Of a DNA stretch of 54,448 nucleotides, positions 18,664-51,408 are shown one piece after another. The position numbers and the translations under genes are program-made. The stretch is taken from positions 1 to 54,448 of the forward strand of contig JAFTCL010000019.1 in the NCBI GenBank assembly GCA_017454745.1, read 5' to 3'. The notes below the pieces were generated by a model. It did no database searches, had not been told where the DNA came from, and saw nothing but the letters and a program-made list of their open reading frames with translations. How positions within the stretch are numbered: the first letter of the stretch is position 1; the number at the start of each line of letters is the position of its first letter. This DNA comes from Kiritimatiellia bacterium. Lineage in GTDB: Bacteria; Verrucomicrobiota; Kiritimatiellia; RFP12; UBA1067.

Positions 18664-18675
18664 GAGGCCCCAGAT

Positions 18676-25418: not shown

Positions 25419-25697
25419 TGGCTATTCTCCTCTAATTGAAAAAACGATGTAATTTTACCATATCCCGCAAAAAAAAGTCAATGAATGTAGTGAGTTTTTT
25501 ATTGTTGATCGCGGATGGCCATATTGCGAAAGTAACGGAATAAAATCGGCCCGCTATTGTCTCGCATATTTGCTTTACTTTGCCTGCATGAAAATGATAC
25601 CATTCTTTTTGTTCCTGCGGAGGAGGTTTTGGGGATTATCGCATAGCATATAGGTGACATGCTCGTCCTTTGTAGGATACAGAATGGAGGCGAATTC

Positions 25698-29352: not shown

Positions 29353-29368
29353 GCCGGGGTCATAATTT

Positions 29369-29998: not shown

Positions 29999-30044
29999 AT
30001 GCGCAGGTAAATTCTAGACCAGCCAAACGGGAAAACTTGTCGCC

Positions 30045-33179: not shown

Positions 33180-33203
33180 CCCCAATAATCGAAAGGGCAG
33201 ATA

Positions 33204-34022: not shown

Positions 34023-34045
34023 ACTCATTTGACAAAGGAAGTGCT

Positions 34046-34708: not shown

Positions 34709-34722
34709 AATTGGAGAGTATC

Positions 34723-35802
34723 ATGAACCGCAAAGAATTGCTGAAGAAACAGTATGAGGAGCGTGTCGCAAGCCCAGAGGGAGGGTCGCGGCCGATGCCA
34801 GTCGCAAAAGGTCGCCCCCCCCGTCCCTATCGGAGAAGCGCATTCTGGCGTTGGTTTTGGCTGTTGTTTCTGATAACTTTACTGGGCGGTTTCTTCCATT
34901 GGCGGGAAGATGTCTTCGCGGTGTGGAACCGGATGTTCGACAAGGACGGCGGCAACCGGTTGTTCGGCTCCGTTCCGGAGAACAATGCCATCGGCGACCC
35001 GTATCCGACCACCCAACTCGGCCATTCGGCCGGCAGCTTGCCGGAAACGGTGGTTCGCCAGTATTTTGTGCCGAGCGAGGCGGAACTGGAGCAGTTGTTC
35101 GAATACGTCCGTTCGTCGCCGCACGTCAAGGAGAACCTTCAATACGCCAACACGATGAAATCCGTGCGTTTCTTCTACCTCGGGGACGATTCCACCGTCA
35201 ATGCATTTGCGTCACTCCGCAAGCTTGACGAGCGGAGTGACGAACTTACCCGCGTGATCTGTTTCTTTGGCGGCGCGGCGAGGTTCTCCCGGGTCGCGTC
35301 GCTGGCAGTCGCTGCGGAGCTGGACGGTGACAAGGGTGCCACCGCTAGGCTGATTAATGCGCTTACGCCTGCCGATTGCGGTAAAATGGATGACGAAGCC
35401 GTGGTCAGGATCGCGAACGCGGCGGGATTAGGCGCGGCTTTAGCTACTGATGCGACCAGAACCAAAGCTAAGTCCGTATCCGCCGGGATGATTCTCGGCA
35501 TCTTGGCTCATGAGTCTGGACACCAATCGTTGGGGCACGTTCTCAATACTGGTCGTAGTGAAAATCTTGAAATCTCCCGTAACCAGGAACGCGAAGCAGA
35601 TTTGTTTGCTTCGAGTGTCATTTCCGCCAGCCCATTTGGTGAGTATATGTTTGCCGGGACGCTTTTCTGGTATTATGCGCTGGCTACTCAAGAGGGCGGT
35701 AAGCAGGAAAACACACATCCCCTCTCAAAAGAACGGTTTGAAAATCTCGTTCGCTCCAACCCCGAGAAGGCTGCTGCAATGGGTGTTTCGCTCAAGGAAT
35801 AG
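34723..35802 (+). CDS. Membrane-anchored HExxH zinc metalloprotease, M48/HtpX-like
   Basis: N-terminal TM (FWRWFWLLFLITLLGGFF). HESGHQSLGH with a downstream ...EREAD... glutamate, as in the M48/M56 arrangement. Start at the ATG at 34723 after a ggagag RBS. Confidence 0.5.
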   Translation: MNRKELLKKQYEERVASPEGGSRPMPVAKGRPPRPYRRSAFWRWFWLLFLITLLGGFFHWREDVFAVWNRMFDKDGGNRLFGSVPENNAIGDPYPTTQLGHSAGSLPETVVRQYFVPSEAELEQLFEYVRSSPHVKENLQYANTMKSVRFFYLGDDSTVNAFASLRKLDERSDELTRVICFFGGAARFSRVASLAVAAELDGDKGATARLINALTPADCGKMDDEAVVRIANAAGLGAALATDATRTKAKSVSAGMILGILAHESGHQSLGHVLNTGRSENLEISRNQEREADLFASSVISASPFGEYMFAGTLFWYYALATQEGGKQENTHPLSKERFENLVRSNPEKAAAMGVSLKE

Positions 35803-35897: not shown

Positions 35898-38800
35898 ATG
35901 AGTGATTTTGACAATGACAAGACGCTTATAAACAATGCAATCAATGTTGAGTCTTTAGACAAAGGCAGAACAATTCCCGTCAAAGAGGTAGAATCGTCAG
36001 TTCTGGGGCGTATCGATCAGTATGAGCTGCATAAGGAACTCGGCGGCGGCGGGTTCGGCACGGTATATTTGGCTCGTGACACCGTGGGGCACCGCGAGGT
36101 TGCGGTGAAGGGGTTGCCGCCTTTAGTCCAAAGCAATCGCGAGGAACTTGAAAATATCCGCACCAACTTCGCGCTGGTGCAGGGGCTTCACCACCCGAAC
36201 ATTGCCGCCGCACTCGTGCTGCATCCAGCCAAGGATGTCATCTACAACTCCGAGGACACGCGGCGAAAACTGCGGGTACTCTCCGGGGAGACCCTGTTGG
36301 TGATGGAGTACGCGCCGGGAGTCACACTTTCCAAATGGCGCAAGCAGTTCCACGGCAGCAAAGTCCCGCTGGAAATGGCTTTGGAAATCGTGCGCCAAGT
36401 CGCGGAGGCGCTTGATTATGCGCATTCCCAAAACATTATCCACCGCGATGTCAAGCCGTCAAACGTTGTTGTGGAAACCAAGCCTGACGGATCGGTCGCG
36501 GCGCGGGTGCTGGACTTCGGGCTGGCGGCGGAGATCCGCTCTTCAATGGGGCGGTTCTCAAAGGAGGTCCGCGACACCTCCGGCACCCGCCCCTACATGG
36601 CGCCTGAGCAATGGCGGGGCGAAAAGCAGGGCCCCGCTACCGACCAGTACGCGCTGGCGGCGATGTTTTTCGAGTTGCTGACGGGTGAAGTCCCATTCTC
36701 TTCGGTTTTCGATTGCGGCGACCCTATGGTGATGATGGTGACGGTAACCGCGAGCCCGGTGAACATCCCGGACGATCTCCCCAAGCCCATCCGGAGCGCG
36801 TTAGCCAAAGCGCTGGCAAAGAAGCAGGAGGAGCGTTTTCCCTCCTGCGGAGAGTTCGCGGCCGCATTGGGCGCGAGGGCGGCTATTCATGCGGCATCGA
36901 AACCGCGTCTGGGAAAGGCCGGAGTTTCGCCCCGCAAAAAGTCTGTCTGGCTGGTAATTCCCGCTGTTCTTGCTTTGCTGGGCGGCGGTTATATTGTCTT
37001 TGCCAGACGTCAGGCGGAAAAGGCTAAACTAGAGATCGAGAAAAGCAGTGCGTTTGCGCTGGAGAGCGAGATGTCGCTCGCGCTGAAGGTCGTTAAAGAT
37101 AAGAGGCACGACCCGGGGCAGGGTTTCAGGGATCGGATAAAGGCTTTGGAAAAATATTATCTCGCCGGCAAAGCCGCGCTTGACGCCAGAGAGTATCCGG
37201 TCGCCCTTAATAACCTGAGCCTGGCCCGCACGGCCGCCGAATGGATTAAAAGCAACGCTGTGTTCCGCGCCGACGCGCTTAGCGAACGGGAGTCGGCTGA
37301 GGCCGGAGCCAGAAATGCGGCTGCTGCCAAAGCCGATGAGTTGGACGCTGCCGGTTACGCAACGGCCACGAATCTTTTTGTAAACGCCTTGCAACAGTTC
37401 GAGTCCGGGAAGTTTATGGTGGCAAAGGCGGAATTCTCCAAATCTTTGGCCGCATTCAAAACGAGCGTCGTGTCGGCAAATAAAGAAGCCGAACGGCGGA
37501 GGCTTGAGAAACGTAAAGCCGATACCGCCGCTGCTATCGCCGCATTTGAGGCTGAACCGCCGAATTGGAACGATGGGGTGCGTTTGGCTCAGACCGCTGA
37601 TCGTAATGACGCGTCCATCCAGTTTTATCTTGGGGTTTGTTGCGATTTCGGTTACGGCGGAGTATCCAATGATCCTTCTGAAGCGGTTAAGTGGTATCTT
37701 AAAGCGGCAGAGCAGGGGCACAAGGTCGCGCAATTCAATCTAGGCGTCTGTTATTCCAAAGGCAGCGGGGTTCAGGAAGACCAGACCGAAGCGACAAAAT
37801 GGTATTGCAAAGCGGCTATGCAGGGATACCGCGAGGCGCAATTCATTTTGGGTAAAAGATATTTCAATGGTATCGGTGTGGATAAGGATGAAGCCGAGGC
37901 GGTCAAGTGGTATCGAATGGCGGCGGATCATGCACATCGGGAGGCGCAGTTTAACCTTGGTGTATGTTACGACAACGGGTCTGGGGTGGAGAAAGACGAG
38001 GCTCAAGCGGTCGAGTGGTACCTTAAAGCCGCTGAGCAAGGCGAGGCTGCGGCACAGTACAATCTTGGCGTTAGCTATGCCAACGGGCTGGGTGTGGAGA
38101 AGAATTTGTCTGAGGCTGCAAAATGGTATCTGAAGGCGGCTGAACAGGGCCACCGTACAGCGCAGTTCAACATTGGCGTCTATTACGACAAGGGTTATGG
38201 GGTGGCAAAAGACGAGGTTGAGGCGGTCAAATGGTACCGCAAGGCTGCCGAGCAGGGGGATGCGTCGGCGCAGTTCAACCTGGGTGTATGCTATGCCAAT
38301 GGACAGGGGATAAAAAAAGACGAGGTTGAGGCGGTAAGATGGTACCTCAGCGCCGCCGGGCAGGGGGATGCGTCGGCGCAGTTCAACCTTGGCGTTAGCT
38401 ATGCCAACGGTCAAGGGGTAGCTAAAGACGATGCGGCGGCGGCCAATTGGTACCGGAAAGCTGCTGTGCAGGGCCACCGGGCCGCACAGTTCAATCTTGG
38501 CGTATGTTACGATAACGGTGAAGGCGTGGTGAAAGACGAGGCCGAGGCGGTAAAGTGGTATCGCAAAGCGGCTGAGCAGGGAGACGTGTCGGCGCAGTTC
38601 AACCTTGGCGTGAGTTATGACAACGGTCAGGGAGTTCAGAAGGACGAGGCCGAAGCGGTAAAATGGTACCGTAAAGCGGCAGAGCAGAATTACCGGGCTG
38701 CGCAGTTCAGTATGGGGCTGTGTTATGCCAATGGACGCGGGGTGGCGAAAGACGATGTGGCCGCGGCGAATTGGTTCCGCAAGGCTGCCGAGCAGGGGCA

Positions 38801-40823
38801 TTACGGCGCGCAGTTTTATTTGGGTGAAAGTTGTGCCAAAGGGCGGGGTGTGCCCAAGGATGAGGCTATGGCGGTTGAGTGGTATCGCAAGGCCGCCGAG
38901 CATGGGCACCGGGACGCGCAATCCAATTTGGGTTTATGTTATGCCAATGGGTTGGGAGTGGAAAAAAACGAAACCGAGGCGGTTAATTGGTTCCTTAAAG
39001 CTGCGGATCAGAATGATACGGTGGCATTGTTCAATTTGGGCGAATGTTACTCCCACGCCAAAGGGGTTCAAAAAGACGATTTCGAGGCTGCAAAGTACTA
39101 CCGCAAAGCCGCCAATCACGGACACCGTGAGGCTCAGTATAATTTGGCCGTATGTTACGCTAACGGACAAGGTGTTCAGAAGAGCGATTCCGAGGCTGCT
39201 GTTTGGTATCGCAAAGCGGCAGAACAGAGGCATAGGGAAGCCCAGTTGAATTTGGGCATTTGCTACGACAATGGCCTTGGTGTCCGCAGGGACGAGTCCG
39301 AGGCGGTCAAGTGGTACCGCTTGGCGGCGGAAAAGGGCAGCGATACGGCGGAGTTCAATCTGGGCGTGTGTTATGCAAACGGCCTTGGTTTGCAAAAGGA
39401 TGAAAACAAGGCGTTTGAGTGGTATCGCAAAGCGGCTGAACAGGGGAACCGGACTGCGCAGTTCAATCTTGGCGTTTGTTACGATAACGGTCGCGGAGTG
39501 GTTAAGGATGAAGCCGAGGCGGTCAAGTGGTACCGCAAGGCTGCCGAGCAGGGCCATTTGATGGCGCAGTTCAATCTCGGCCTGTGTTACGCCAACGGGT
39601 TGGGGGTGCCGAAAGACGAAGCCGAGGCGGTTAAATGGTACAGCAAGGCGGCTGAAAAAGGGAACGTGGTCGCCCAAAGAAATTTGGGGGGTTGTTATGC
39701 CGGCGGGAAAGGCGTTCCTAAGAATGAAGCCGAGGCGGTGAAGTGGTACCGCATGGCGGCGGAAAACGGTGACGCTCAAGGACAGTTTCTGTTAGGCGAT
39801 GCTTACGAGTCAGGCAAAGGGGTTGAAAAGGATTCCGCTGCCGCGAACCTGTGGTACGACAAATCCGCCGCTCAGGGAAACCGGTTGGCAAGAAAAGCTT
39901 TGGTGCGAATCAGCGGGGCCTCCGGTGTTACTTATGAGTCGGCACTGTCTATGTTAAACATCAATCTGGATGCCGTGTTCACTGCCGATAAGGTCGTCGA
40001 TGTCCCGGCCGGCGCGGATTTGGAGAAAACGGTAGAAGACTGCCCGGACGGGGCCACGTTGCGTCTGGCTGCCGGAACTTATGCGATTTCCGGCGCCAAA
40101 CAGCTTAGTTTCTCTAAGAACCTTAAAATCACCGGTGTTTCTCCGGAAAGTACCCATATCTATGGTAAGTTTTGTTCTTATAATCCATCGGATAAAAGCG
40201 GTACGGTTCTGGTTGTCGAGAATCTCGCGTTTGAGTTCGAGAAAACCGGTGACAATAGCGATTATGGCGTCTGGGGCGCAGATGGCGGGGCCCTCGCGGT
40301 CAACCACTGCCGTTTCGCCAATTGCGGTATAAGGGTCTCCGCTAAATCAAGAGCCGTTCTTGCCGACATTGCGGTTGACAATGCCAAATGGGAGATTGAT
40401 GTTTCAGAAGCGGCCAAGGCGGTTGTCCTCAACGCGCAACTTACAAACACAACTGGACATTTCATTATTGGATTCAAGAATTCGCGTGTCTTTTGCGAGG
40501 ATGTTGTGATGTCAGGAGGAGTTGATGCCGGAATGTTTGCGCGATATGGTGGCAGCCAATGGTTTCTGCGCTGCTGTTACGTCCGGAATCTTATGCCGCC
40601 AAAATATGCTTCGTCCGGGATTGGCGTTACAGCCGGCTCGAAAGTAAAAGTCTATCTGGATAGCGTTACCTTTGAGAATTTGACTGGCGCGCCGGTTGAC
40701 AATTCTGGCACATGCGTTTACCGCAATCTGACCGTAAGACAGTGCGGAGAAGACTTGAAAGGAAACGGCAGTTACCTGAAGCAGGACGCCCCGATTCCCT
40801 TGCCGGAGGGTTTCTTCCGTTAA
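35898..40823 (+). CDS. Receptor-type Ser/Thr protein kinase (kinase 1): N-terminal Hanks kinase, one TM helix, ~22 Sel1 repeats, C-terminal right-handed beta-helix-like domain
   Basis: LGGGGFGTVYLARD...VAVK (Gly loop and Lys), HRDVKPSNVVV catalytic loop, DFGLA, TRPYMAPE. TM SVWLVIPAVLALLGGGYIVFA. Long array of AxQFNLGVCYxNGxGVxKDxxEAVKWYRKAAEQG Sel1 repeats. C-terminal NxxG/parallel-beta-like segment. Confidence 0.8.
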   Translation: MSDFDNDKTLINNAINVESLDKGRTIPVKEVESSVLGRIDQYELHKELGGGGFGTVYLARDTVGHREVAVKGLPPLVQSNREELENIRTNFALVQGLHHPNIAAALVLHPAKDVIYNSEDTRRKLRVLSGETLLVMEYAPGVTLSKWRKQFHGSKVPLEMALEIVRQVAEALDYAHSQNIIHRDVKPSNVVVETKPDGSVAARVLDFGLAAEIRSSMGRFSKEVRDTSGTRPYMAPEQWRGEKQGPATDQYALAAMFFELLTGEVPFSSVFDCGDPMVMMVTVTASPVNIPDDLPKPIRSALAKALAKKQEERFPSCGEFAAALGARAAIHAASKPRLGKAGVSPRKKSVWLVIPAVLALLGGGYIVFARRQAEKAKLEIEKSSAFALESEMSLALKVVKDKRHDPGQGFRDRIKALEKYYLAGKAALDAREYPVALNNLSLARTAAEWIKSNAVFRADALSERESAEAGARNAAAAKADELDAAGYATATNLFVNALQQFESGKFMVAKAEFSKSLAAFKTSVVSANKEAERRRLEKRKADTAAAIAAFEAEPPNWNDGVRLAQTADRNDASIQFYLGVCCDFGYGGVSNDPSEAVKWYLKAAEQGHKVAQFNLGVCYSKGSGVQEDQTEATKWYCKAAMQGYREAQFILGKRYFNGIGVDKDEAEAVKWYRMAADHAHREAQFNLGVCYDNGSGVEKDEAQAVEWYLKAAEQGEAAAQYNLGVSYANGLGVEKNLSEAAKWYLKAAEQGHRTAQFNIGVYYDKGYGVAKDEVEAVKWYRKAAEQGDASAQFNLGVCYANGQGIKKDEVEAVRWYLSAAGQGDASAQFNLGVSYANGQGVAKDDAAAANWYRKAAVQGHRAAQFNLGVCYDNGEGVVKDEAEAVKWYRKAAEQGDVSAQFNLGVSYDNGQGVQKDEAEAVKWYRKAAEQNYRAAQFSMGLCYANGRGVAKDDVAAANWFRKAAEQGHYGAQFYLGESCAKGRGVPKDEAMAVEWYRKAAEHGHRDAQSNLGLCYANGLGVEKNETEAVNWFLKAADQNDTVALFNLGECYSHAKGVQKDDFEAAKYYRKAANHGHREAQYNLAVCYANGQGVQKSDSEAAVWYRKAAEQRHREAQLNLGICYDNGLGVRRDESEAVKWYRLAAEKGSDTAEFNLGVCYANGLGLQKDENKAFEWYRKAAEQGNRTAQFNLGVCYDNGRGVVKDEAEAVKWYRKAAEQGHLMAQFNLGLCYANGLGVPKDEAEAVKWYSKAAEKGNVVAQRNLGGCYAGGKGVPKNEAEAVKWYRMAAENGDAQGQFLLGDAYESGKGVEKDSAAANLWYDKSAAQGNRLARKALVRISGASGVTYESALSMLNINLDAVFTADKVVDVPAGADLEKTVEDCPDGATLRLAAGTYAISGAKQLSFSKNLKITGVSPESTHIYGKFCSYNPSDKSGTVLVVENLAFEFEKTGDNSDYGVWGADGGALAVNHCRFANCGIRVSAKSRAVLADIAVDNAKWEIDVSEAAKAVVLNAQLTNTTGHFIIGFKNSRVFCEDVVMSGGVDAGMFARYGGSQWFLRCCYVRNLMPPKYASSGIGVTAGSKVKVYLDSVTFENLTGAPVDNSGTCVYRNLTVRQCGEDLKGNGSYLKQDAPIPLPEGFFR

Positions 40824-40880: not shown

Positions 40881-43800
40881 ATGGACGATTTTTACGACGA
40901 CAGGTCTTTGAGGGAGAATGCGGCGGAGCCGGAAAAGTCATTCGGCAGCGAAAATACGCTGGTTGAACGGCAGATTTTGGGCCGCATCGACCAGTACGAG
41001 CTGATCCGCGAGCTGGGCGGCGGCGGGTTTGGCACGGTCTATCTGGCTCGGGACACCGTTTCCGGGGTGGAGGTGGCGGTGAAGGGGTTGCCGCCGGCGA
41101 TCAAGAACAATCTGGAGGAGTTGGAGAACATCCGGGCCAACTTCGCGCTGGTGCAGCGGTTGCACCACCCGAACATAGCGGCGGCTCTGGTTCTGCACCA
41201 GGCGGCCGCCGTCGATTACTCCGACGCCGGCACCCGCGACAAACTCCGGGTCTTGCCCGGCGAGACGCTGCTGGTGATGCAGTACGCGCCGGGCGTGACG
41301 CTCTCGCAGTGGCGCAAGCAGTTCCCCGGACGCAAGGTGCCGCTCGAAAAGGCGCTGGACATCGTGAGCCAGATCGCGTCAGCGCTGGATTACGCCCATT
41401 CGCAGAAGATCATCCACCGCGACATCAAGCCGTCAAACGTGGTGGTGGAGACCCGCGCCGACGGCTCGGCGGTGGCGCGGATACTGGACTTTGGGCTGGC
41501 GGCCGAGGTGCATTCATCGATGTCCCGCATCTCCAAAGAGGTTTGCGATGTCTCCGGCACCCGGCCCTACATGGCCCCGGAGCAGTGGCTGGGGCGCCGG
41601 CAGGGGCCGGCCACCGACCAGTACGCGCTGGCGGCGCTGTTCCACGAGTTGGTCACCGGCGAGGTTCCGTTCTCATCCGTGTTCGACACCGGCGACCCGG
41701 TGGTCATGATGAACGTCGTGGGGCGCGAAGTTTTCGCGGCGGCCCCGGAATTGCCCAAACCAGTGCGTCTGGCTTTGTGCAGGGCGCTGGCCAAAAACCC
41801 GGAGGAACGTTTCGCCGCCTGCGGCGACTTTGCCGCAGCGTTGGGCGGAGCAAAGGCCAAACCCGCCGGCGGACACCGTCTGCTTAAGGGCGTGGCGGCG
41901 CTCTGGGCGGCGGCGGCGGTTGCCGCCGCCGGCGTTACGGCTTGGCAATGGCACGCCCGGCGCGATGCCGCCCGTAGGGAGGCGGAGAATCTTGCTCGCG
42001 CTGAATACGCGGCAGAGACGAACCGGCTGGCCGAAGCGGTTTCGAAAGCCGCGGCGACGGCCGCCGCCGCGTGGAACGGGACCGAGCCTTACCGCCTTGA
42101 CCCGGAGGGACTGGAAACGCAGCTCTCGGAACTGAGCAACCTGTGGGCCGGAGTCTCGGCGGAGTGGCGGCCCGACCCAGACAACGCCGCCGTTTCGCTG
42201 TCCAACCGCTTGGCGGAGGTTTCCGCCGCCGCCGAAGCCATTGCCTCAGTTTCGGCGAAAATGAAGCCGCTGAGCGAGGCAAGGGAAAGGGTACGGCTTG
42301 AACGCCGGCGCGAGCTTGACGCACGGGCGAAGGAAGAGGCCGCCAAGGATGCCGCAAAGCGAGCCAAAGAGGCACAGGAACGCGCCGCCGAGCTGGTGCG
42401 GCTCAAGACACGGCTCAACATCAAACGATCGGACGCGGAGGCCAAGATGAGGGAATTGGACGGCTACCGCGCCGCCCCGGAGGGCCTGGAGGGGCGCATC
42501 GCGTCCGCCGACGGCCAGTGGAAGACGCTGAAGGCGCTCCCGGAGCCGGAGTCGCTCGAACAGGCAGAGACGGCGCTGGACATGGCGGACAAGGCGGAGA
42601 CCCAAATCTCTCTTGACCTCGCGTGGCTCCGGGAAAACAAGGCCGGGCGCGACGCCGCCAAGGCCGCAGTCGGCGAGATTTCCGCCATTTTGCGCGGTGA
42701 CGCGGCCGACTTCAATGCGGAGAAATACGCCGCCGGGCGGTACGGCGAGGCGGCTCGGCTGCGCGAGGCCGGCGACGCCGCCTTCAAACGCGGCGATTTC
42801 GCGGCGGCCGGCAAGTCGCTCGCGGCGGCGCGGGAGAAGTTCGCTGATGCCGCGCGGGAGGCAAGGGATTTTTGCGTCAAGACCAGGGTGGAGGCCGCCC
42901 GCGAGTATTTCAAGGCCGGAAAGTGGAAGGAGTGCATAGCGGAGGCGGATAAGGCTCTGGAGTGGGCGCCGGGAAATGATGCCGCGGCACGCCTGAAGAA
43001 GGATGCTGAAGACCACCTTGTGCCGACGGCGGAGCTGGCCGCTACGGTTGACGGGCGCGAAGTGCAGGCGGAGGTGACGGAGGCTGGCCGCGGGCCCCGC
43101 CGCACGCCGGCGGAACTTGGGCGGCTAACGCCGAACGGCAGGATCGGGCCGTTCAAATTCACCCATGCCGAGAACGGCAGGCGTTACGAGGGGACGATTG
43201 ATGAGCTAACGGTCGACTGGCGCGGCCCTAAACGGCTTGAGTGCAGGCTTCAGGAACGTAAAGAACCCAGAGCCGGCGACGTTAAGACCGTCATCATGCC
43301 GGGCGGCGCGGCAATGGAGATGGTGTGGTGCCCTGCGGGCAGCTTTATGATGGGGAGCGACAATGGCGGCAGCGACGAAAAGCCGGCTCACCGGGTGACG
43401 ATATCCAAGGGGTTCTGGATCGGGAAGTACCCGGTGACGCAGGCCCAGTGGGCGTCGATGTACAATAAGCTGGGGCCGATAACCGGATCAAGCGCCGAAC
43501 CGTCATGCTTCAGCGCATCGGGCGGCGGGAAATCCGCAGTGTCCGGCATGGACACCTCGCGGTTCCCGGTGGAAAGGGTTTCCTGGGATGACTGCGACCA
43601 AATGGTCGAGTTGCTTAACCGCGCCCAAAGCGAGTGCGTCTTTGCGCTGCCGACGGAGGCGCAGTGGGAGTACGCGGCCCGCGGCGGCCCGCTGTCCAGA
43701 GGCTACACCTACAGCGGAGGCAACTACTTAGACCGGTTGGGCTGGTACTACGAAAATTCCGGCAGGGGGCGGCTTGACGAATCGGACTGGGATGTAAAAA

Positions 43801-44111
43801 AACTCGATTCTAACGGTTGCCGTACCCACCGGGTGGACGAGAAAGACGTTGGCAACGAGCTGGGCATTGTAGGAATGAGCGGCAACGTCTGGGAGTGGTG
43901 CCGGGACTGGTACGATGGAGACTATTACTCGCGTTCGCCGGAAACCGATCCCTGCAACACGGCATCGGGCGGTAACCGGGTGTTGCGCGGCGGCGGCTGG
44001 AGCGCCCATGCGGGGGGCTGCCGCTCCGCGTACCGCTACAGGTACGGGCCCGGCCTCCGCGTCTACGACTTCGGCTTCCGCCTCGTCTGCTCCGCAGGAC
44101 CGCGCGAGTGA
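40881..44111 (+). CDS. Receptor-type Ser/Thr protein kinase (kinase 2), the DGR variable protein: kinase, TM, Ala/Glu/Arg-rich coiled coil, C-terminal FGE-sulfatase (C-type lectin fold) domain carrying the VR
   Basis: Kinase motifs as in kinase 1 (HRDIKPSNVVV, DFGLA, TRPYMAPE). TM LWAAAAVAAAGVTAW. FGE domain MVWCPAGSFMMGS...KPAHRVTISKGFWIGKYPVTQAQW...NVWEWCRDWY...RVLRGGGWS...GFRLVCS. The last ~49 codons are the VR. Confidence 0.85.
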   Translation: MDDFYDDRSLRENAAEPEKSFGSENTLVERQILGRIDQYELIRELGGGGFGTVYLARDTVSGVEVAVKGLPPAIKNNLEELENIRANFALVQRLHHPNIAAALVLHQAAAVDYSDAGTRDKLRVLPGETLLVMQYAPGVTLSQWRKQFPGRKVPLEKALDIVSQIASALDYAHSQKIIHRDIKPSNVVVETRADGSAVARILDFGLAAEVHSSMSRISKEVCDVSGTRPYMAPEQWLGRRQGPATDQYALAALFHELVTGEVPFSSVFDTGDPVVMMNVVGREVFAAAPELPKPVRLALCRALAKNPEERFAACGDFAAALGGAKAKPAGGHRLLKGVAALWAAAAVAAAGVTAWQWHARRDAARREAENLARAEYAAETNRLAEAVSKAAATAAAAWNGTEPYRLDPEGLETQLSELSNLWAGVSAEWRPDPDNAAVSLSNRLAEVSAAAEAIASVSAKMKPLSEARERVRLERRRELDARAKEEAAKDAAKRAKEAQERAAELVRLKTRLNIKRSDAEAKMRELDGYRAAPEGLEGRIASADGQWKTLKALPEPESLEQAETALDMADKAETQISLDLAWLRENKAGRDAAKAAVGEISAILRGDAADFNAEKYAAGRYGEAARLREAGDAAFKRGDFAAAGKSLAAAREKFADAAREARDFCVKTRVEAAREYFKAGKWKECIAEADKALEWAPGNDAAARLKKDAEDHLVPTAELAATVDGREVQAEVTEAGRGPRRTPAELGRLTPNGRIGPFKFTHAENGRRYEGTIDELTVDWRGPKRLECRLQERKEPRAGDVKTVIMPGGAAMEMVWCPAGSFMMGSDNGGSDEKPAHRVTISKGFWIGKYPVTQAQWASMYNKLGPITGSSAEPSCFSASGGGKSAVSGMDTSRFPVERVSWDDCDQMVELLNRAQSECVFALPTEAQWEYAARGGPLSRGYTYSGGNYLDRLGWYYENSGRGRLDESDWDVKKLDSNGCRTHRVDEKDVGNELGIVGMSGNVWEWCRDWYDGDYYSRSPETDPCNTASGGNRVLRGGGWSAHAGGCRSAYRYRYGPGLRVYDFGFRLVCSAGPRE
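43960..44106 (+). repeat. DGR variable repeat (VR), 147 bp, at the 3' end of kinase 2
   Basis: Aligns gap-free with 45254-45400. All ~21 internal mismatches fall at positions where the TR has adenine. Confidence 0.85.
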
Positions 44112-44146
44112 AGGGGCGGAGCGAAGATGGGGCTGCGGGCCAGGCG

Positions 44147-44163
44147 GCCCCCGCGGAGCGGGG
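44147..44163 (+). other. GC hairpin downstream of the VR (7-bp stem cccccgc/gcggggg, 3-nt loop), candidate DGR homing hairpin
   Basis: Perfect inverted repeat read directly, ~40 bp 3' of the VR end. Position and GC-rich stem resemble the hairpin required for efficient homing in the Bordetella phage DGR. Confidence 0.5.
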
Positions 44164-44268
44164 GTGCGCGGAGCGCAAGCGGGCCGCAGCTAAGGCACCT
44201 GGGACATTGGCGGGACGCGCGACCATTGGCGGGGGTTTTCAACGGGAGTTGGCATTGGGTTTTGCAAC

Positions 44269-45540
44269 ATGAAAAGAATCGGATGGGTATTGGGGCGGAT
44301 TCTGGATCCGGACAACCTGCGGCTCGCCTTCTGGAAGGCGAGCCGGGGCAAGCGCCACCGCGCCGACCAGCGCGAATGGCAGGATTCCCTTGAAGAGCGG
44401 ATCGAGGAATTGCGCATGGGTATCGAGAACCTAACGTACCCGGTTGGAGAATACCGGCGGTTCACAATTTACGAGCCGAAGGAGCGGGAAATCTGCGCGG
44501 CGGCGTTCGGCGAGCGGGTGCTTCACCACGCGATCATGAACATCTGCGAGCCGTATTTCGACCGCTGGCTGGTTGCCGACACTTTCGCGTGCCGCAAGGG
44601 AAAGGGGCAGTCCGCTGCGGTGGACCGGGCGGCGCACTTTGCTCGGCACCACGAATGGTTCATGAAGTGCGACTTCAGGAAGTATTTCGACTCCATCCCG
44701 CACGATGGGGTACGGCGGATGCTGGAACGCCGTTTCAAGGATCCCGGACTTTTGGAGTGGTTCTGGCGGATAGTCGGCGCTTACGAGAAGACACCGGGGC
44801 GCGGGGTACCAATCGGGAACCTGACCAGCCAGCATCTGGCAAACCTGTATCTGGACCCGCTTGACAGGATGCCGCGGTTTGGCTGTGGCTACGTGCGCTA
44901 CATGGACGATTTCGTGTTTTGGGCAGACCGCAAGGAGACGCTGCTAGAGTTGCGGAGGCGTGTCTCCGATTTTTCGGGGGAGACGCTTGGCTTGGAGCTG
45001 AAGCGCGAACCGTTTATAAACCGTACCGCCGCCGGAATGGAGTTTTTGGGCATGCGTATCTACCGCAGCGCCGTGTACCTGTCGCGCCGAAGCCGCGTCC
45101 GCTATGGGCGTAAAGTCCGGGCCTGCGAGAGGCTTTTTGAGAAAGGGGAGCTGTGCGAGGCGGAGCTGCAGCGCCGGGTCACGTCGCTCACGGCGTTTGT
45201 CTCGGGCGCGGATTCCCTGGTATGGCGAAGACACAATTTGGCAGTCCGCGAGGGGCATCGGGCGATAACCGGGTGTTGCGCGGCGGCAGCTGGAACAACC
45301 ATGCGGAGAACTGCCGCTCCGCGAACCGCAACAGGAACAAGCCCGGCAACCGCAACAACAACAACGGCTTCCGCCTCGTCTGCTCCGCAGCACCGCAGGA
45401 CAGAACTCCGCGCGGTCCCCGCGGGCGGCCGGATCCCGTGCTATGGGACAAATTCATCCCTCCGCCCGGACGCAAGTAGCGGCGCCGAAAGTTTCCGGGC
45501 GGAATCCATTTCCGTTGGAGGGGCGGGACAATGCAGATAA
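44269..45540 (+). CDS. DGR reverse transcriptase
   Basis: RT motifs ICAAAFGERVLHHAIMN, FACRKGKGQSAA, KCDFRKYFDSIPH, YVRYMDDFVFWAD (YxDD), as in DGR RTs such as Bordetella phage Brt. The RT-like portion is ~330 aa. The ORF then continues in another frame across the TR to 45540 without a stop, so the true C-terminus is uncertain. Confidence 0.85.
   Translation: MKRIGWVLGRILDPDNLRLAFWKASRGKRHRADQREWQDSLEERIEELRMGIENLTYPVGEYRRFTIYEPKEREICAAAFGERVLHHAIMNICEPYFDRWLVADTFACRKGKGQSAAVDRAAHFARHHEWFMKCDFRKYFDSIPHDGVRRMLERRFKDPGLLEWFWRIVGAYEKTPGRGVPIGNLTSQHLANLYLDPLDRMPRFGCGYVRYMDDFVFWADRKETLLELRRRVSDFSGETLGLELKREPFINRTAAGMEFLGMRIYRSAVYLSRRSRVRYGRKVRACERLFEKGELCEAELQRRVTSLTAFVSGADSLVWRRHNLAVREGHRAITGCCAAAAGTTMRRTAAPRTATGTSPATATTTTASASSAPQHRRTELRAVPAGGRIPCYGTNSSLRPDASSGAESFRAESISVGGAGQCR
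45254..45400 (+). repeat. DGR template repeat (TR), 147 bp
   Basis: Adenine-rich (about 33 A). Read in the target frame it has many AAC codons (NRNRNKPGNRNNNNGFRLV). Identical to the VR at all non-A positions. The 3' ends diverge (TR ...ctccgcagcaccgcaggac vs VR ...ctccgcaggaccgcgcgag), as expected for IMH*/IMH. Confidence 0.85.
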
Positions 45541-45950
45541 GCACGTTTTTCGTTCCTTTGGCGGATGACGGGCGGGCGCAAGACGATTTAAACTCGTTCC
45601 TGCGCGGGCGGAGAGTCCTGAAGGTCGGCGAGGCGTTTGCCGGCAACGGCTGGGCGTTTTGCGTGGAGTGGCTTGAGGAAGGCGCGTACGTCCGGGACGG
45701 GCGACAGTCGCAACGGCGGGTGGATTACCGCGAGGTGCTGGAGCCGGCGGTTTTCGAACGGTTTGCGAAGCTGCGGGAGCGGCGCAAGGCGATTGCCGCA
45801 GAGGACGGGGTGCCGCCGTATATGGTGATGACCGACGCGCAGATGGCCGAGGCCGCCAAGCCTGAAAGGCTGACGGCTGAAGTGCTTAAGGCAATCGAGG
45901 GATTCGGTGAGGCAAGGCTAAAAAAATACGGCGAACGGATCATGGCGTGA
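45531..45950 (+). CDS. DGR accessory protein with a C-terminal HRDC domain
   Basis: VFERFAKLRERRKAIAAEDGVPPYMVMTDAQMAEAAKPERLTAEVLKAIEGFGEARLKKYGERI is a textbook HRDC sequence. Start overlaps the end of the RT ORF. Confidence 0.7.
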   Translation: MQISTFFVPLADDGRAQDDLNSFLRGRRVLKVGEAFAGNGWAFCVEWLEEGAYVRDGRQSQRRVDYREVLEPAVFERFAKLRERRKAIAAEDGVPPYMVMTDAQMAEAAKPERLTAEVLKAIEGFGEARLKKYGERIMA

Positions 45951-45994
45951 TTCGCCGTGCGGGAAAATATGCGGCAAGGTATGGGGGCGATGCG

Positions 45995-48900
45995 ATGGAC
46001 GACTTTGGCGATGACAGGACTTTGAGGAATAATGCGGCGGAGCCGGAAAAGTCATTCGGCAGCGAGAAGACGCTGGCCGGACGGCAATTTCTGGGCCGCA
46101 TCGACCAGTACGAGCTGATTCGCGAGCTGGGAGGCGGCGGGTTCGGCACGGTCTATCTGGCTCGGGACACCGTTTCCGGGGTGGAGGTGGCGGTCAAAGG
46201 GTTACCCCCAGTAATCAAAAACAGCGCGGAGGATCTTGAGAACATCCGCGCCAACTTTTTGCTGGTGCAACGTTTGCACCATCCTAACATTGCCGCCGCG
46301 CTTACGCTGCATCCGGCGAGTCGCGTAGAATACTCTGACAACGCTACGCGGGAGAAACTGCGCGTTCTGTCCGGCGAGACGCTGCTGGTTATGCAGTATG
46401 CGCCGGGTGTGACGCTTTCGCAGTGGCGCAAACAGTTCCCGGACCGCAAGGTGCCGTTGGAAAAGGCGCTGGATATCACCAGTCAGGTTGCCTCGGCACT
46501 GGATTACGCGCACAGGCAGAAAATCATCCACCGCGACATCAAGCCGTCAAACGTGATGGTGGAGACCCAACCTGACGGTTCGATAGTAGCACGGGTGTTG
46601 GATTTTGGTTTGGCGGCGGAGATACGCTCATCGATGGGGCGTATTAGTCGTGAAGTCCGCGACACTTCCGGTACTCGCCCCTACATGGCACCAGAACAGT
46701 GGCAGGGCGAAAAGCAAGGCCCGGCCACCGACCAGTACGCGCTGGCGGCGATGTTTTACGAACTGGTCACCGGTGAGGTCCCCTTTTCCTCGGCTTTCGA
46801 TTGCGGCGACCCTATGGTAATGATGGTGACGGTAACCACCCGCCAGGCAAAAATCCCCGGTAGTTTGCCCAAGCCGGTTTGCGTCGCGTTGGCGAGAGCG
46901 CTGGCGAAAAAGCCGGAGGAGCGTTTTGCGTCCTGCGGCGATTTTGCCGATGCATTGGATGGGAAAAGGGTAAAGCCTATTTCCTCCTGCCGTCGCAAAC
47001 GCCCCTTGCTGAAATGGCTTGCCGCGCTTTATGCCGCTGCGGCGGTGGCCGCTGGTGTTATAACGGTTTGGCAATGGAACATCAAGCGTGAGGCAGCCAA
47101 AGCCGCCGCGGAAATGATGGTGCGGGAGGCAGAGGAAAATATAAAGCATCATGTATACGAGCTTAAGGGCAAAGCAGGCAAATGCCGTGACGCTAGCAAT
47201 CGTGAGGAGTGGCAGTCATGGGAATTGTTCAAAGACAAGGCAAATGATTTGGATATTGCGTTTAGGGCGGGAGAATCGGCTTTTGAAAAAAATGATTTCC
47301 CGGCGGCAAAAGATCAGTTCACTAAAGTAAGTGATATATGGGAATGGTTAGTTTCAAACAAAACCGCCAGAACTAAAGCGGTTGACGCTCGTGATGCGGC
47401 AGACGCGGCTCGAAAATCCGCCGCTGCCGCCAATGCTAGCAAATTTTCTGTCAATGAGAATGCTCAAGCGGACGAGATTTTTAAACGTGCAGAGAAATCA
47501 TTCACACAAGGGTTATTCGGGGACGCAGAAATTACTTTTGGCAACGCAAGAACTGCTTATGACAGGGCGACGGAACTTGCAAATGTGGAAATTGCGCGGC
47601 GTGCGGAGGCCGAACGTGTCGCTGAGGCGGAAAGACTAGCAGAAATAGAAGCTGCCAATAAGGCCAGAGCGGAAAAGGAACGAAAAATTCGTGAAGAGAA
47701 CGAACGTATTGCCGCAGAAAAAAAAGCAGAGGAGGAACGTAAAGAAAGAAAAATCGTAGAGGGTAGGAAGGCCAACCGTAAAATCATTGATCTTTTCAAA
47801 GCGGATAAATGGGACGAGGGGTTTGCGTGTATTGCGAATGCCTTTGAAGACGATCCCGAACTTGATTATCAGCTTGGTAGAGCTTATTCAACGGATTATA
47901 AACGCCGTAACTATTTGACAGCGCGGGAATACTTCCGGAAAGCGTCAAAAAGAATGCAAATTCGGCAGGAAGAAATCGAAAAGGTGGAGGAAGAGGCGCT
48001 TTTTGAATTAGTTAGCAAATGTCGTTTGGAAGAGGTTAAAGCGGAAATCAACGTTTCAACGCCATATCTTTCTTTGTCGCATGACGGGTACACATTGATG
48101 CACCATGCCGCCCATAAACGCGACCATGTGTTTTTGGAGTATCTAAATTCACTCGGACATTCTGTGAATGCATCGTCTGGTACAACCGGGAAGACTCCGC
48201 TTTTTTACGCATGCGCAAATACCAATCGAGCCGATTCCCTTGATTGCATTGATTGGCTTTTGTCACACGGATCAGACTGTAATGTTCGCGTTAAATCAGG
48301 ATCTGAAGTAGGCAAATCGCCAATTTTCCATGCTAGGGATGTTAATGCCTTCAAACGTCTTTTGCAAGCGGGGGCAAGTGTCGATGTAGTGGATGGCTTG
48401 GGTAGAACCATATTGCACGAGTTGGCACAATATTCAGATGATGCCGAACTGATAAGTTACGCTGTGGATAAGTGTCGCGGAAAAATCAATTCCCTTTCCA
48501 ATATTGGGGAAAGTGTAGTACATAGCGCGATAGGCATCTCTCATTTCAATCCTGATGTGCTCGATGTTCTACTTAAACATGGGGCAAAAGCCGATGCGGT
48601 TATTGGCGGAAACGGTTCGGATGCAGGTTTTGCGCCAATCCACAAAGCAATATATTGGATGTATCCCAAAGCCGTGGAAAGGCTGGCAGATTACGGCGTG
48701 GATGTCAATCAGCGTGTTGGAGACAGTAATAAGTTTTTTCATGGGTTTAGTTCAATACAACTTTTGGCAAGAAAAGGATGGCATCGTGACAATGATCAAG
48801 AGGTCAATGCAGTGGTGAAGACACTGGTTAAACATGGCGCAGACATAAACGAACATTGCAAAGGGTTTTATTCTGGCGAATATTTGATGTTTGAGGGATA

Positions 48901-49705
48901 TACCCCTTTACACATTGCAAGCGAATCTAGCAATGCTGAACTCGTGTCCGCTTTGATAGACAATGGAGCAAATTTAGAGGCAACTGATGCAAACGGGGCA
49001 ACAGCACTCTATCTTGCATGCACAGAGTATGGTATTGACGAAAGAACTATGAACATAATAAAAATTCTACTCCGGCGCGGCGCAAACCCGAACGTGGCCG
49101 ACAAGACTGGTAAAAAGCTTTTGGATGCCGTAAAGAATGCCGATGTGAAGAAACTGCTTCTGGACGCGGCAGGGCTGCGCGGCAACGTTGCGCTTGGCAA
49201 TGTACAACGGGAAAACGGAATACAGAACCAAACCGACAAGACTCGGCAGGTAACGGAAATTGCGTTAAAAGCATTCGCGGCAGGTAATTGGGATGATGGT
49301 ATAAAGCTGTCGAAGCAAGGCGATGAAACTGACCCTCGGTTGCAATACTGGCGCGGCTATTGCGCTGAGAAGGGAATCGGAGAAGCAACCGACGAGAAAA
49401 AAGCGGCGCAGCTCTACCTTCAGTCTGCGAACGGCGGTTGTGCAGAGGCGCAGCATCGTTACGGGCTGATGTGTTTCATAGGTCGGGTCGTGGAGAGAAA
49501 TTTAGGTGAAGCGATGCGCTGGAATGAGAAAGCAGCTGAACATGGGAATGTCAAAGCGCAAAAGTTTCTCGCAATACAGTGGGATGGCGGGCATTCAGTC
49601 CCGCGCAATGAAGAAAAGGCTGTCAAATGGTACCGTCTAGCCGCCAAGAATGGGGATGAGGAAGCAAAAAAATGGTTGCAAAACAAAACAATCGGTTTGA
49701 ACTAG
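45995..49705 (+). CDS. Receptor-type Ser/Thr protein kinase (kinase 3): kinase, TM, coiled coil, ankyrin repeats, C-terminal Sel1 repeats
   Basis: N-terminal ~330 aa nearly identical to kinase 2 (MDDFGDDRTLRNNAAEPEKSFGSE...GRIDQYELIRELGGGGFGTVYLARDTVSGVEVAVKGLPP). TM LAALYAAAAVAAGVITVW. Ankyrin-like TPLHIA / GATALYLAC units. Three or more Sel1-like units at the end. Start at the ATG at 45995 by analogy with kinase 2. Confidence 0.8.
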   Translation: MDDFGDDRTLRNNAAEPEKSFGSEKTLAGRQFLGRIDQYELIRELGGGGFGTVYLARDTVSGVEVAVKGLPPVIKNSAEDLENIRANFLLVQRLHHPNIAAALTLHPASRVEYSDNATREKLRVLSGETLLVMQYAPGVTLSQWRKQFPDRKVPLEKALDITSQVASALDYAHRQKIIHRDIKPSNVMVETQPDGSIVARVLDFGLAAEIRSSMGRISREVRDTSGTRPYMAPEQWQGEKQGPATDQYALAAMFYELVTGEVPFSSAFDCGDPMVMMVTVTTRQAKIPGSLPKPVCVALARALAKKPEERFASCGDFADALDGKRVKPISSCRRKRPLLKWLAALYAAAAVAAGVITVWQWNIKREAAKAAAEMMVREAEENIKHHVYELKGKAGKCRDASNREEWQSWELFKDKANDLDIAFRAGESAFEKNDFPAAKDQFTKVSDIWEWLVSNKTARTKAVDARDAADAARKSAAAANASKFSVNENAQADEIFKRAEKSFTQGLFGDAEITFGNARTAYDRATELANVEIARRAEAERVAEAERLAEIEAANKARAEKERKIREENERIAAEKKAEEERKERKIVEGRKANRKIIDLFKADKWDEGFACIANAFEDDPELDYQLGRAYSTDYKRRNYLTAREYFRKASKRMQIRQEEIEKVEEEALFELVSKCRLEEVKAEINVSTPYLSLSHDGYTLMHHAAHKRDHVFLEYLNSLGHSVNASSGTTGKTPLFYACANTNRADSLDCIDWLLSHGSDCNVRVKSGSEVGKSPIFHARDVNAFKRLLQAGASVDVVDGLGRTILHELAQYSDDAELISYAVDKCRGKINSLSNIGESVVHSAIGISHFNPDVLDVLLKHGAKADAVIGGNGSDAGFAPIHKAIYWMYPKAVERLADYGVDVNQRVGDSNKFFHGFSSIQLLARKGWHRDNDQEVNAVVKTLVKHGADINEHCKGFYSGEYLMFEGYTPLHIASESSNAELVSALIDNGANLEATDANGATALYLACTEYGIDERTMNIIKILLRRGANPNVADKTGKKLLDAVKNADVKKLLLDAAGLRGNVALGNVQRENGIQNQTDKTRQVTEIALKAFAAGNWDDGIKLSKQGDETDPRLQYWRGYCAEKGIGEATDEKKAAQLYLQSANGGCAEAQHRYGLMCFIGRVVERNLGEAMRWNEKAAEHGNVKAQKFLAIQWDGGHSVPRNEEKAVKWYRLAAKNGDEEAKKWLQNKTIGLN

Positions 49706-49777
49706 CAGGATTCTGTTTGCCGTCTGCAGGCGAATCGAGGATAATAACGGAAGAAGAATACCAAAGGAAAATCAAGC

Positions 49778-51342: not shown

Positions 51343-51408
51343 TAGTGTGCTGACAAAGGTTTTTGCGTTTGGTTTGCTGATTGCAAAACCACAAGGAAAG
51401 GTACGGTT

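Follow-up and report, generated by a model that had tools for sequence, protein, structure and literature searches.

A retroelement-diversified lectin domain on a predicted single-pass Ser/Thr kinase of a Kiritimatiellia bacterium

Which protein is rewritten by the diversity-generating retroelement (DGR) of this locus, on which side of the membrane would the rewritten domain lie, and what might its variation serve? The DNA analysed (the window) is a contig of 54,448 nucleotides, and all the features located below lie on its forward (+) strand. The best explanation, which is considered probable, is an active chromosomal DGR of the HRDC type with a single local target, a Hanks-type Ser/Thr kinase that passes once through the membrane.

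The target gene (40881..44111) was delimited using the ORF list, Pfam, public gene calls, and a full-length AF2 model. [quoted passage not shown] The kinase domain (residues 39-313, 40995..41819) matches Pfam Pkinase at 2e-39 (136 bits, for a cut-off of 31.7), and the GxGxxG, VAVK, HRDxKxxN, DFG, and APE motifs can all be read in its sequence. Residues K68, HRD 179-181, N186, DFG 203-205, and APE 232-234 are invariant across 28 homologues. The closest solved relatives in the PDB are the receptor kinases PknA, PknB, and StkP, and the motifs align to those of PknA and PknB. With this full motif set, the kinase looks catalytically competent, and the N-terminal Hanks kinase of a 1076-residue protein, proposed in an earlier note on this DNA, is borne out.

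The same note described a coiled coil of ~500 residues after the membrane helix. The Ala/Glu/Arg-rich composition stands (A 24%, E 12%, and R 10% in the helical linker), but the length does not: about 360 residues of helices (357-715) are followed by a beta-sandwich of ~85 residues (716-800). According to AF2 secondary structure and pLDDT, the all-helical linker (residues 358-715, 41952..43025) begins with long helices of low confidence (358-500) and continues as a confidently predicted helical bundle (500-715), while the beta-sandwich (43026..43280), made entirely of strands with a pLDDT of ~90, is conserved among homologues.

The C-terminal domain (residues 812-1069, 43314..44087) matches Pfam FGE-sulfatase (PF03781, 3e-47), and its top fold match is the DGR variable protein TvpA (2Y3C, E 7e-15, TM 0.70). 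The variable repeat (VR) constitutes the C-terminal strands and loops of this TvpA-like domain and aligns in register, without gaps, with the VR of TvpA, which upholds the FGE-sulfatase/CLec domain bearing the VR that had been recognized before. AF2 confidence is low over part of the VR (residues 1040-1049). Because of the in-register alignment, and since variable residues are solvent-exposed in all solved CLec variable proteins (PMC6328139), we infer that the 18 variable residues are exposed to solvent and make up the ligand-binding face, as they do in TvpA, Mtd, and TaqVP. A functional FGE enzyme was considered and rejected: in the alignment to Streptomyces coelicolor FGE, the first of the paired catalytic copper-binding cysteines is lost, being replaced by A1042, a DGR-variable codon, while the second, C1047, is retained. 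As judged from its sequence, the domain has the fold of FGE and is not an FGE enzyme.

The VR (43961..44097, or up to 44103) does lie at the C-terminus of the target, as first reported, although it covers ~46 codons (1028-1072 of 1076) and not ~49. The template repeat (TR; 45254..45390, or up to 45396) is located 1293 nt further on. All 21 mismatches within 43961-44097 fall at TR adenines, mostly in AAC codons (21 of 22 over the 143 nt covered by the detection script), and the first difference at another base, C/G at 44098, comes after the GC-rich 3' end. The variable bases extend from 43972 to 44071, and the mismatched adenines hit 18 codons (1031-1064), giving ~1.3e18 possible proteins. The invariant G+C-rich 3' end of the VR (44072..44103), defined by the VR/TR alignment, is IMH-like; a 23-mer at this end of the VR and TR also closes both repeats of an unrelated DGR (L090). 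Further downstream, a GC hairpin, CCCCCGC-GGA-GCGGGGG (44148..44164, DNA fold z = -2.4), may serve as a target-recognition hairpin. Similar hairpins are found in loci L017 and L009, and not in L083 and L085.

The cassette is arranged in the order target-RT-TR-HRDC, directly downstream of the target. The reverse transcriptase (RT; 44269..45540, Pfam RVT_1 4e-17) is encoded by an intact ORF with all motifs, the conserved part of which stops near 45258 while the frame continues through the TR. Its IGNLTSQ and YMDD motifs match the DGR-clade patterns [I/L/V]GxxxSQ and YxDD, and G183, L185, S187, Q188, and Y211-D214 are invariant in 35 relatives. The RT has 6306 homologues, and adenine-specific TR/VR pairs were found in 62 of 87 sequences, a set that includes the window and its two near-identical assemblies. 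A 139-residue HRDC accessory protein (45531..45950, PF00570 8e-16) follows; HRDC is present in 73 of 80 related DGR loci. No Avd was found among the small ORFs around the cassette. The search for further VRs of the same TR gave none within the window, and no intrinsic terminators or promoters around the cassette rose above the shuffled background. Overall, the RT motifs, the adenine-confined TR/VR differences, the 3' VR in a CLec fold, and the HRDC accessory gene identify a DGR.

In the proposed mechanism, TR RNA would be converted to adenine-mutagenised cDNA that replaces the VR (mutagenic retrohoming), so that a population could hold up to ~1e18 receptor specificities while the signalling chassis stays constant. 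The kinase would reside in the cytoplasm, with the helix at ~334-357 crossing the inner membrane, and the stalk, beta-sandwich, and lectin domain would be periplasmic. As in PknB-type receptors, ligand binding may then change the way in which the kinase oligomerises or its state of activation, and the resulting phospho-threonine signal could be read by the FHA-domain protein of the conserved neighbouring locus, a link suggested by gene neighbourhood. In the paralogues of the target, the same chassis bears sensor domains that are fixed (Sel1, ankyrin).

These paralogues flank the target on both sides, in agreement with the previously described array of kinases with differing sensor domains. Based on Pfam and hydropathy, the upstream one (35898..40823) combines a kinase, a transmembrane helix, 21 Sel1 repeats, and a beta-helix, and the downstream one (45947..49705), which shares 86% identity with the target over its first 300 nt, a kinase, a transmembrane helix, ankyrin, and Sel1. 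A conserved companion module (25659..35802; Pfam, PADLOC, and NCBIfam) precedes the array and encodes a Zn-ribbon-SPFH protein, an FHA protein, a Snf7-like protein, a Zn-ribbon protein, a classical AAA ATPase, a Lit/U49-like peptidase, and four unassigned, mostly exported proteins. Homologous modules adjoin kinase arrays in L013, L083, L086, L087, L171, and L172. The idea that every kinase-FGE gene is a DGR target was rejected, as neither an RT nor a TR lies nearby in four of the seven loci sampled (L086-L089).

The Snf7-like protein of the window scores 23.7 bits against a cut-off of 27.3, and 18 of 18 homologues match Snf7, the best at 5e-8; a PDB sequence search with the family profile returned no meaningful match. 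The AAA ATPase covers positions 43-366 of the 370 of the CdvC model at 199 bits, a score far under the equivalog cut-off and similar to those obtained with the Cdc48 and PAN models. The locus to which the kinase array belongs resembles archaeal ESCRT loci (Makarova et al. 2024, PMC11188069), with which it shares a Snf7-family protein, a classical AAA ATPase that is near-full-length to the CdvC/Vps4 model, FHA and Zn-ribbon-SPFH proteins, and membrane Ser/Thr kinases; unlike these, it has a bacterial host, and its ATPase scores similarly against the Cdc48/PAN models. This resemblance is a lead and not a claim of membership, and it suggests that archaeal ESCRT-type loci have a counterpart in bacteria. 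According to a 2025 review (PMC7619361), bacteria appear to have no Vps4-like partners of ESCRT-III. The gene content also suggests a signalling route from receptor kinase to phospho-threonine, FHA protein, and membrane-remodelling machinery. A bolder version, in which the DGR kinase is one of several swappable sensor inputs (Sel1, ankyrin, Lcl_C, or FGE/CLec ectodomains on a shared kinase-TM chassis) feeding a conserved Snf7(ESCRT-III)-AAA-FHA-SPFH envelope module of Kiritimatiellae, is put forward tentatively and judged unlikely as it stands. If true, a retroelement would set the trigger of an ESCRT-like membrane-remodelling or envelope-defence response, in a bacterial parallel to archaeal ESCRT loci, likewise equipped with membrane Ser/Thr kinases and FHA proteins.

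The same neighbourhood bears on whether the receptor is a dedicated anti-phage sensor, whose hypervariable periplasmic lectin domain detects components of an invader and whose kinase triggers an abortive or containment response via the Lit-like peptidase, the AAA ATPase, and the Snf7-like protein. This reading departs from the best explanation in function (immunity versus general sensing) and not in architecture, and it is a possibility of some weight, even if a minority one. PADLOC matches in the cluster comprise an IetA-like AAA (9e-28), Lit/peptidase_U41 (weak), and PDC-S01 (6e-135), the homologous locus L172 has acquired a GmrSD gene by insertion, DGR-diversified CLec sensors of conflict systems have been proposed (PMC7159879; PMC10907252), and a periplasmic immune role for DGR proteins has been discussed (PMC10053308). 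Nevertheless, the matches to defence models correspond to generic AAA and peptidase folds, far under curated cut-offs, and the Snf7-like protein is 82-89% identical over hundreds of Kiritimatiellae clusters, as would fit a core function of the cell better than a defence gene that evolves fast. Moreover, the DGR-linked kinase-FGE gene of L085 stands amid housekeeping genes.

The side of the membrane on which the lectin domain is exposed can be approached from hydropathy. A single transmembrane helix is predicted at residues ~334-357 (41880..41951; Kyte-Doolittle hydropathy, and an AF2 helix of low confidence), with a 19-residue mean of 1.82, the sole peak above 1.6 in the target. An equivalent segment (mean hydropathy 2.08) is present in 103 of 115 homologues, in which the N-flank carries a net charge of +2.4 versus +0.3 for the C-flank; the N-flank is the more basic one in 76 homologues, versus 14 showing the reverse. 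No signal peptide was detected in the target protein. Because both flanks are basic in the target itself, its orientation relies mainly on the family charge trend and the missing signal peptide. Hydropathy, the positive-inside rule over ~100 homologues, and the lack of a signal peptide thus place the kinase, by prediction, in the cytoplasm and the lectin tip in the periplasm, 'outside' being here the predicted periplasm of a diderm and not the cell surface. The predicted topology is that of PknB, with one transmembrane helix after the kinase and an N-in/C-out orientation, and it agrees with the cytoplasmic kinase and extracytoplasmic CLec tip announced by the earlier note.

Alternatively, the segment may not span the membrane, or may be a mere tether, and the lectin domain would sense a cytoplasmic ligand or pick kinase substrates. 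Such an arrangement has precedents: a cytosolic location is predicted for most STK-CLec variable proteins of cyanobacteria (PMC7517822), and cytoplasmic sensing has been proposed for most of them, as well as for the STAND/kinase 'antigen sensors' that multicellular bacteria possess (PMC7517822; PMC10907252). In the target, the helix is rich in Ala and its insertion energy is marginal (a summed Hessa-scale value of +2.9 kcal/mol), the flank charges are ambiguous, and 12-16 of ~115 homologues have no clear hydrophobic segment. A cytoplasmic sensor is nonetheless improbable, as a hydrophobic segment occurs at the same place after the kinase in the target and both flanking paralogues and in ~90% of homologues, with a clear positive-inside asymmetry, and the nearest solved kinases are single-pass receptor kinases. 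In addition, the adjoining module genes encode exported proteins and lipoproteins, and the paralogues bear Sel1 repeats beyond the helix. Repeats of this kind are generally characteristic of bacterial proteins that are exported.

Whether the periplasmic sensor of the preferred reading is actually diversified can be addressed using natural VR alleles, the comparison across genomes that the earlier reading had suggested. Three near-identical public assemblies show 23, 16, and 16 pairwise base differences in the VR, every one at a TR-adenine site, and just 1-3 differences in the other 23,231 bp, with identical TRs; as they may come from the same or related samples, these counts are evidence for VR heterogeneity and not for a rate. 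TR-adenine positions make up 33 of the 137 VR positions, and the chance of finding 23 of 23 differences there is ~6e-15. Since the assemblies differ at these sites and barely elsewhere, VR diversity exists in nature, and adenine-site polymorphism of this kind points to mutagenic retrohoming that is probably ongoing. Searched for further alleles, JGI metagenomes gave no exact match to a 32-mer from upstream of the VR, and the 23-mer shared by the VR and TR 3' ends matched only the unrelated DGR L090. An inactive relic whose VR differences arose as artefacts of assembly or sequencing is very improbable: the assemblies may stem from overlapping read sets, and a consensus can be chimeric in heterogeneous regions, but even a chimeric consensus needs several VR variants in the reads, all 55 pairwise differences fall on TR-adenine positions against an unchanged TR and surrounding ~23 kb, and the RT is intact. 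Kinase motifs, the membrane-like helix, the TvpA-type VR, and adenine-site alleles together favour the predicted receptor kinase with a DGR-reprogrammed sensor, as initially proposed.

A phage-borne DGR diversifying a receptor-binding protein, like that of Bordetella phage BPP-1, recalls that DGRs were first discovered in phages and that the lectin fold is common to the phage protein Mtd, but it is scarcely credible for a kinase within a paralogue array, with cellular genes as neighbours, no phage genes in the ~30 kb annotated around it (about 20-54 kb) and RT relatives at up to 64% identity in PVC genomes versus at most 45% in viral contigs, so that the initial rejection of a phage tail fibre holds.

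Kinase-CLec DGR targets are known from cyanobacteria (Vallota-Eastman et al. 2020, PMC7517822), constitute class b12 of Wu et al. (2018, PMC5758913), and are listed as 'Pkn1/PknD with CLec' in MAG surveys (PMC11661182). The earlier note rightly stated that kinase targets appear in surveys but overstated their novelty, as STK-CLec targets had already been described (PMC7517822, PMC5758913, PMC11661182, PMC10907252). Here, the VR occurs in nature in different versions, and the gene cluster is an unusual one. The target shares with cyanobacterial STK-CLec proteins an N-terminal Hanks kinase, a C-terminal FGE-type CLec domain with the VR, and paralogue families both linked and unlinked to DGRs, for which a role in tuning signalling pathways has been proposed. 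It differs by its Kiritimatiellae (PVC) host, by a transmembrane helix, long stalk, and beta-sandwich that predict a periplasmic sensor, by an HRDC-type cassette without Avd in the order given above, and by directly observed VR alleles. The range of kinase-CLec targets thereby grows from cyanobacteria to gut/rumen PVC bacteria, and it comes to include a topology predicted to be periplasmic.

Treponema denticola TvpA, from an HRDC-type DGR (Architecture C, Wu et al. 2018), is similar in variable-domain fold, VR register, and HRDC accessory gene, and a Treponema locus (L082) is among the RT neighbours; TvpA is, however, a stand-alone lipoprotein-type variable protein, whereas the domain is here a kinase ectodomain. 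PknB, PknA, and StkP have the nearest kinase domain and the same predicted topology (N-terminal cytoplasmic kinase, one transmembrane helix, extracytoplasmic sensor), with PASTA repeats in place of the DGR-diversified lectin domain. The 'antigen sensors' (Kaur et al. 2020, PMC7159879; Dore et al. 2024, PMC10907252) also fuse hypervariable CLec domains to signalling or NTPase modules, include some targets with kinase domains and transmembrane segments, and have defence-like genes nearby, as here. Unlike them, the present locus has no MoxR-vWA, STAND NTPase, caspase, or TIR partners, its partner module being SPFH-FHA-Snf7-AAA, and its host is not known as multicellular.

The locus offers a clean natural case in which a DGR diversifies the predicted sensor face of a receptor kinase, and not an adhesin or a tail fibre. 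With three VR alleles in hand and a well-defined receptor architecture, it is suited to expression and ligand screens. The weightier lead is its context, namely kinase arrays within a highly conserved SPFH-FHA-Snf7-AAA locus. The host itself is a rumen-type bacterium (Kiritimatiellae).

The ORF at 40866/40881-44111 on the plus strand, present in the ORF listing of the window, encodes a protein of 1076 aa from the ATG at 40881, the start used by public gene callers. An identical protein (MBQ9430732.1, from a Kiritimatiellae metagenome-assembled genome, MAG) is annotated by NCBI as a 'SUMF1/EgtB/PvdO family nonheme iron enzyme' and nothing more. Two domains are recognised by Pfam, a protein kinase at residues 39-313 (2e-39) and an FGE-sulfatase at residues 812-1069 (3e-47). 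The Gly-rich loop and the VAVK, HRDIKPSN, DFG, and APE motifs are all present, with no variation at these positions across 28 aligned homologues; together with the Pfam match, this bears out the Hanks kinase that an earlier note had placed at the N-terminus. The closest relatives of known structure are receptor kinases, namely PknA, PknB, and StkP.

In an AlphaFold model of the whole protein (built from 28 sequences; mean pLDDT 76), the kinase (residues 34-321) is followed by a long helix from residue 339 that contains a hydrophobic segment, low-confidence helices up to about 500, a helical bundle modelled with confidence (500-715, pLDDT 82-94), a beta-sandwich (716-790), and finally the lectin domain. 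The linker is thus more complex than the coiled coil of about 500 aa described in the earlier note. When residues 716-1076 were modelled separately (pLDDT 75.5), the best PDB match was the variable protein TvpA (2Y3C; E 7e-15, TM 0.70), with true FGEs ranking behind, and the variable region (VR) aligns in sequence, gap-free and in register, with the 45-residue VR of TvpA, as delimited in PMC6328139. A TvpA-like variable domain is thus joined, via a hydrophobic helix, to an intact kinase. Within the VR, homologues preserve the scaffold positions and are hypervariable at those corresponding to adenines of the template repeat (TR); by analogy with TvpA, the variable residues would form an exposed binding face. 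A functional FGE enzyme is ruled out: at the position of the first catalytic cysteine, the target has the variable residue A1042.

Diversification of this domain can be traced to an intact HRDC-type diversity-generating retroelement (DGR) with adenine-restricted TR/VR differences. A direct repeat of 143-152 nt pairs the ORF end (43961-44103) with 45254-45396, and each of the 21 mismatches in 43961-44097 coincides with an adenine in the downstream copy, in most cases within an AAC codon, which is the signature of a template repeat. The 18 variable codons (1031-1064) allow about 1.3e18 possible proteins. VR and TR are identical over their final 26 nt, and the first non-adenine difference, C/G at 44098, lies where an IMH-like boundary would be expected. 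The exact 23-mer GGCTTCCGCCTCGTCTGCTCCGC ends both VR and TR in L090, an unrelated DGR from a JGI metagenome (686-708 and 2336-2358); in the window, the shared 3' sequence occupies 44073-44097 (VR) and 45366-45390 (TR), and in both cassettes it is directly followed by the same G (VR) versus C (TR) difference (44098 in the window). The putative IMH-like element is thus conserved between different cassettes of the clade.

The reverse transcriptase (RT) ORF (44269-45540; RVT_1, 4e-17), located between VR and TR, carries the DGR-typical motifs IGNLTSQ and YMDD, unchanged in 35 relatives. Having no stop ahead of the TR (45254-45396), it crosses this repeat in a different frame. The RT ORFs of relatives encode 405-450 aa, and some of them match Pfam FGE, which indicates that the TR is there in the lectin frame, fused to the RT ORF; the TR, thus, overlaps the RT ORF 3' end throughout the clade. 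After RT and TR comes a 139-aa HRDC protein (45531-45950, 8e-16), while the small ORFs around the cassette revealed no Avd, the alternative accessory gene. The cassette fits the HRDC 'Architecture C' of Wu et al. (PMC5758913). HRDC is present in 73 of the 80 related loci, the closest of which share the gene order target-RT-TR-HRDC, with target-HRDC-RT-TR found in farther relatives. Relatives from genomes, at up to 64% identity, belong mainly to PVC bacteria, with many rumen Kiritimatiellae MAGs among them, and one Treponema locus also falls among the relatives; viral contigs reach at most 45% identity. The clade is, therefore, cellular.

Comparison of VR alleles across related genomes, a check proposed in the earlier note, provides direct evidence of diversification in nature. 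The 90% cluster of the target comprises three sequences from three assemblies, identical over residues 1-1030 and differing only within the VR. Pairwise DNA differences over 23,231 aligned bases number 24, 19, and 18, of which 23, 16, and 16 lie within 43972-44071. Every difference between VR alleles occurs at a TR-adenine position, although such positions make up only 33 of the 137 in the VR; by our own arithmetic, the chance of 23 out of 23 differences falling at adenine sites is about 6e-15. The TR is identical in all three assemblies. These may share reads rather than be independent samples, in which case several VR haplotypes in the population would still be required. A search of JGI metagenomes yielded no additional VR alleles. 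The natural VR polymorphism is adenine-restricted.

The topology was predicted from hydropathy and flank charge. In all three kinase paralogues of the window, a single segment exceeds the classical hydropathy threshold, and it immediately follows the kinase domain (about residues 334-357 in the target, mean 1.82). Such a segment is found in 103 of 115 homologues with a complete kinase (mean 2.08), with a net charge of +2.4 in the 15 residues before it versus +0.3 in the 15 after, the N-flank being the more basic in 76 homologues and the C-flank in 14. The target has no signal peptide. With an N-terminal kinase that depends on ATP, these features predict the orientation proposed earlier, kinase in and lectin out, 'out' being the periplasm in a diderm. 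The weak points are the Ala-rich target helix, with a summed Hessa-scale value of +2.9 kcal/mol, for a membrane span, and the basic character of both flanks in the target itself, for the orientation. The lectin domain is probably periplasmic.

More than 3000 proteins combine a kinase with an FGE domain, the named ones originating from Kiritimatiellae and Lentisphaeria. Seven such loci offered enough context, and three of these hold a local DGR whose TR/VR pair was verified: the window, L083 (= P0002), and L085 (= P0012); none was found in the other four (L086-L089). Kinase-fused targets are a minority among the 80 loci found through the RT (L004, L023, and L047), and a further related locus, L003, is syntenic with the window. 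As noted earlier, the target lies among kinase paralogues with other sensor domains; two flank it, their ectodomains being of Sel1/beta-helix and ankyrin/Sel1 type. The 5' ends of the target (40881-41180) and of the downstream paralogue (45995-46294) are 86% identical at the DNA level, yet the sensor-encoding 3' parts diverge strongly in G+C content, at about 65% in the target versus 46% in that paralogue (about 63-65% in 42001-46000 versus 45-53% in 46001-52000). The kinase genes are mosaics that combine a common chassis with interchangeable sensor domains, which suggests recombination or gene conversion of the chassis with imported sensor domains.

Upstream of the array, on the same strand, lies a conserved module (25659-35802) encoding a Zn-ribbon-SPFH/Band_7 protein, an FHA protein (27347-28765), a Snf7-like protein, a Zn-ribbon protein, a classical AAA ATPase with a single domain, four uncharacterised proteins that mostly bear export signals, and a Lit/U49-like peptidase. 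Homologues of the module (30-80% identity) accompany the kinase arrays of L083, L086, and L087. In L171 and L172, found via Snf7-like homologues, SPFH-FHA-Snf7 genes are followed by kinase paralogues (Sel1, Lcl_C, or FGE) and then the AAA ATPase. In L013 (3-4800), from another Kiritimatiellae MAG, a DGR cassette (RT-TR-HRDC) directly precedes the AAA ATPase and unknown genes 1-3, an arrangement that differs from that of the window and supports a functional link between DGR and module. In all of these loci, kinase arrays lie inside or adjoin the module. The Snf7-like protein recurs in hundreds of Kiritimatiellae clusters at 82-89% identity, and all 18 members tested match Pfam Snf7. The AAA ATPase shows a near-full-length match to the CdvC (archaeal Vps4) model, with a score that falls well short of the curated cut-off and is close to those obtained with Cdc48 and PAN. 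In its layout, the locus is similar to archaeal ESCRT loci in which membrane Ser/Thr kinases occur together with FHA and SPFH proteins (PMC11188069). According to a recent review, Vps4-like partners appear to be absent in bacteria (PMC7619361); another study describes some archaea-to-bacteria transfers of Vps4-like ATPases (PMC11237479). The ESCRT-like resemblance is a lead on the downstream pathway rather than a settled classification.

In the proposed mechanism, a ligand would contact the exposed variable face of the periplasmic lectin domain and activate the kinase in the manner of PknB-type receptors, and the FHA protein of the locus would read the kinase output. For general sensing, candidate ligands are rumen glycans or envelope fragments. 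The receptor could also serve immunity, with invader components as candidate ligands, as the defence-like neighbour genes would suit; the very high conservation of the module speaks against this.

That kinase-domain DGR targets already figure in surveys, as the earlier note stated, was confirmed. Wu et al. [quoted passage not shown] Membrane-anchored targets dominate among cellular DGRs (PMC8144416), and sensors of conflict systems with kinase or TM parts have been described (PMC10907252, PMC7159879). The target is, therefore, a well-supported further case of an already described type. It stands out by its predicted topology as a single-pass receptor, by the direct evidence that its VR is diverse in nature, and by its location within a conserved Snf7-AAA-FHA-SPFH locus. 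The literature search found no paper connecting DGRs with Kiritimatiellae.

The kinase array is immediately followed, at 49778-52530, by two lipoprotein-like ORFs that match no family and then by a PrsW-family intramembrane protease. Further on, an AAA_14/DUF4143 ATPase (52709-54031) very strongly matches the PADLOC candidate defence family PDC-S01 (6e-135), and a homologue of this gene occurs within the kinase array of L086. In L172, an inserted GmrSD-type (type IV restriction) gene (17191-19488) separates the kinase array from the AAA ATPase, which suggests that the site tolerates or attracts defence genes.
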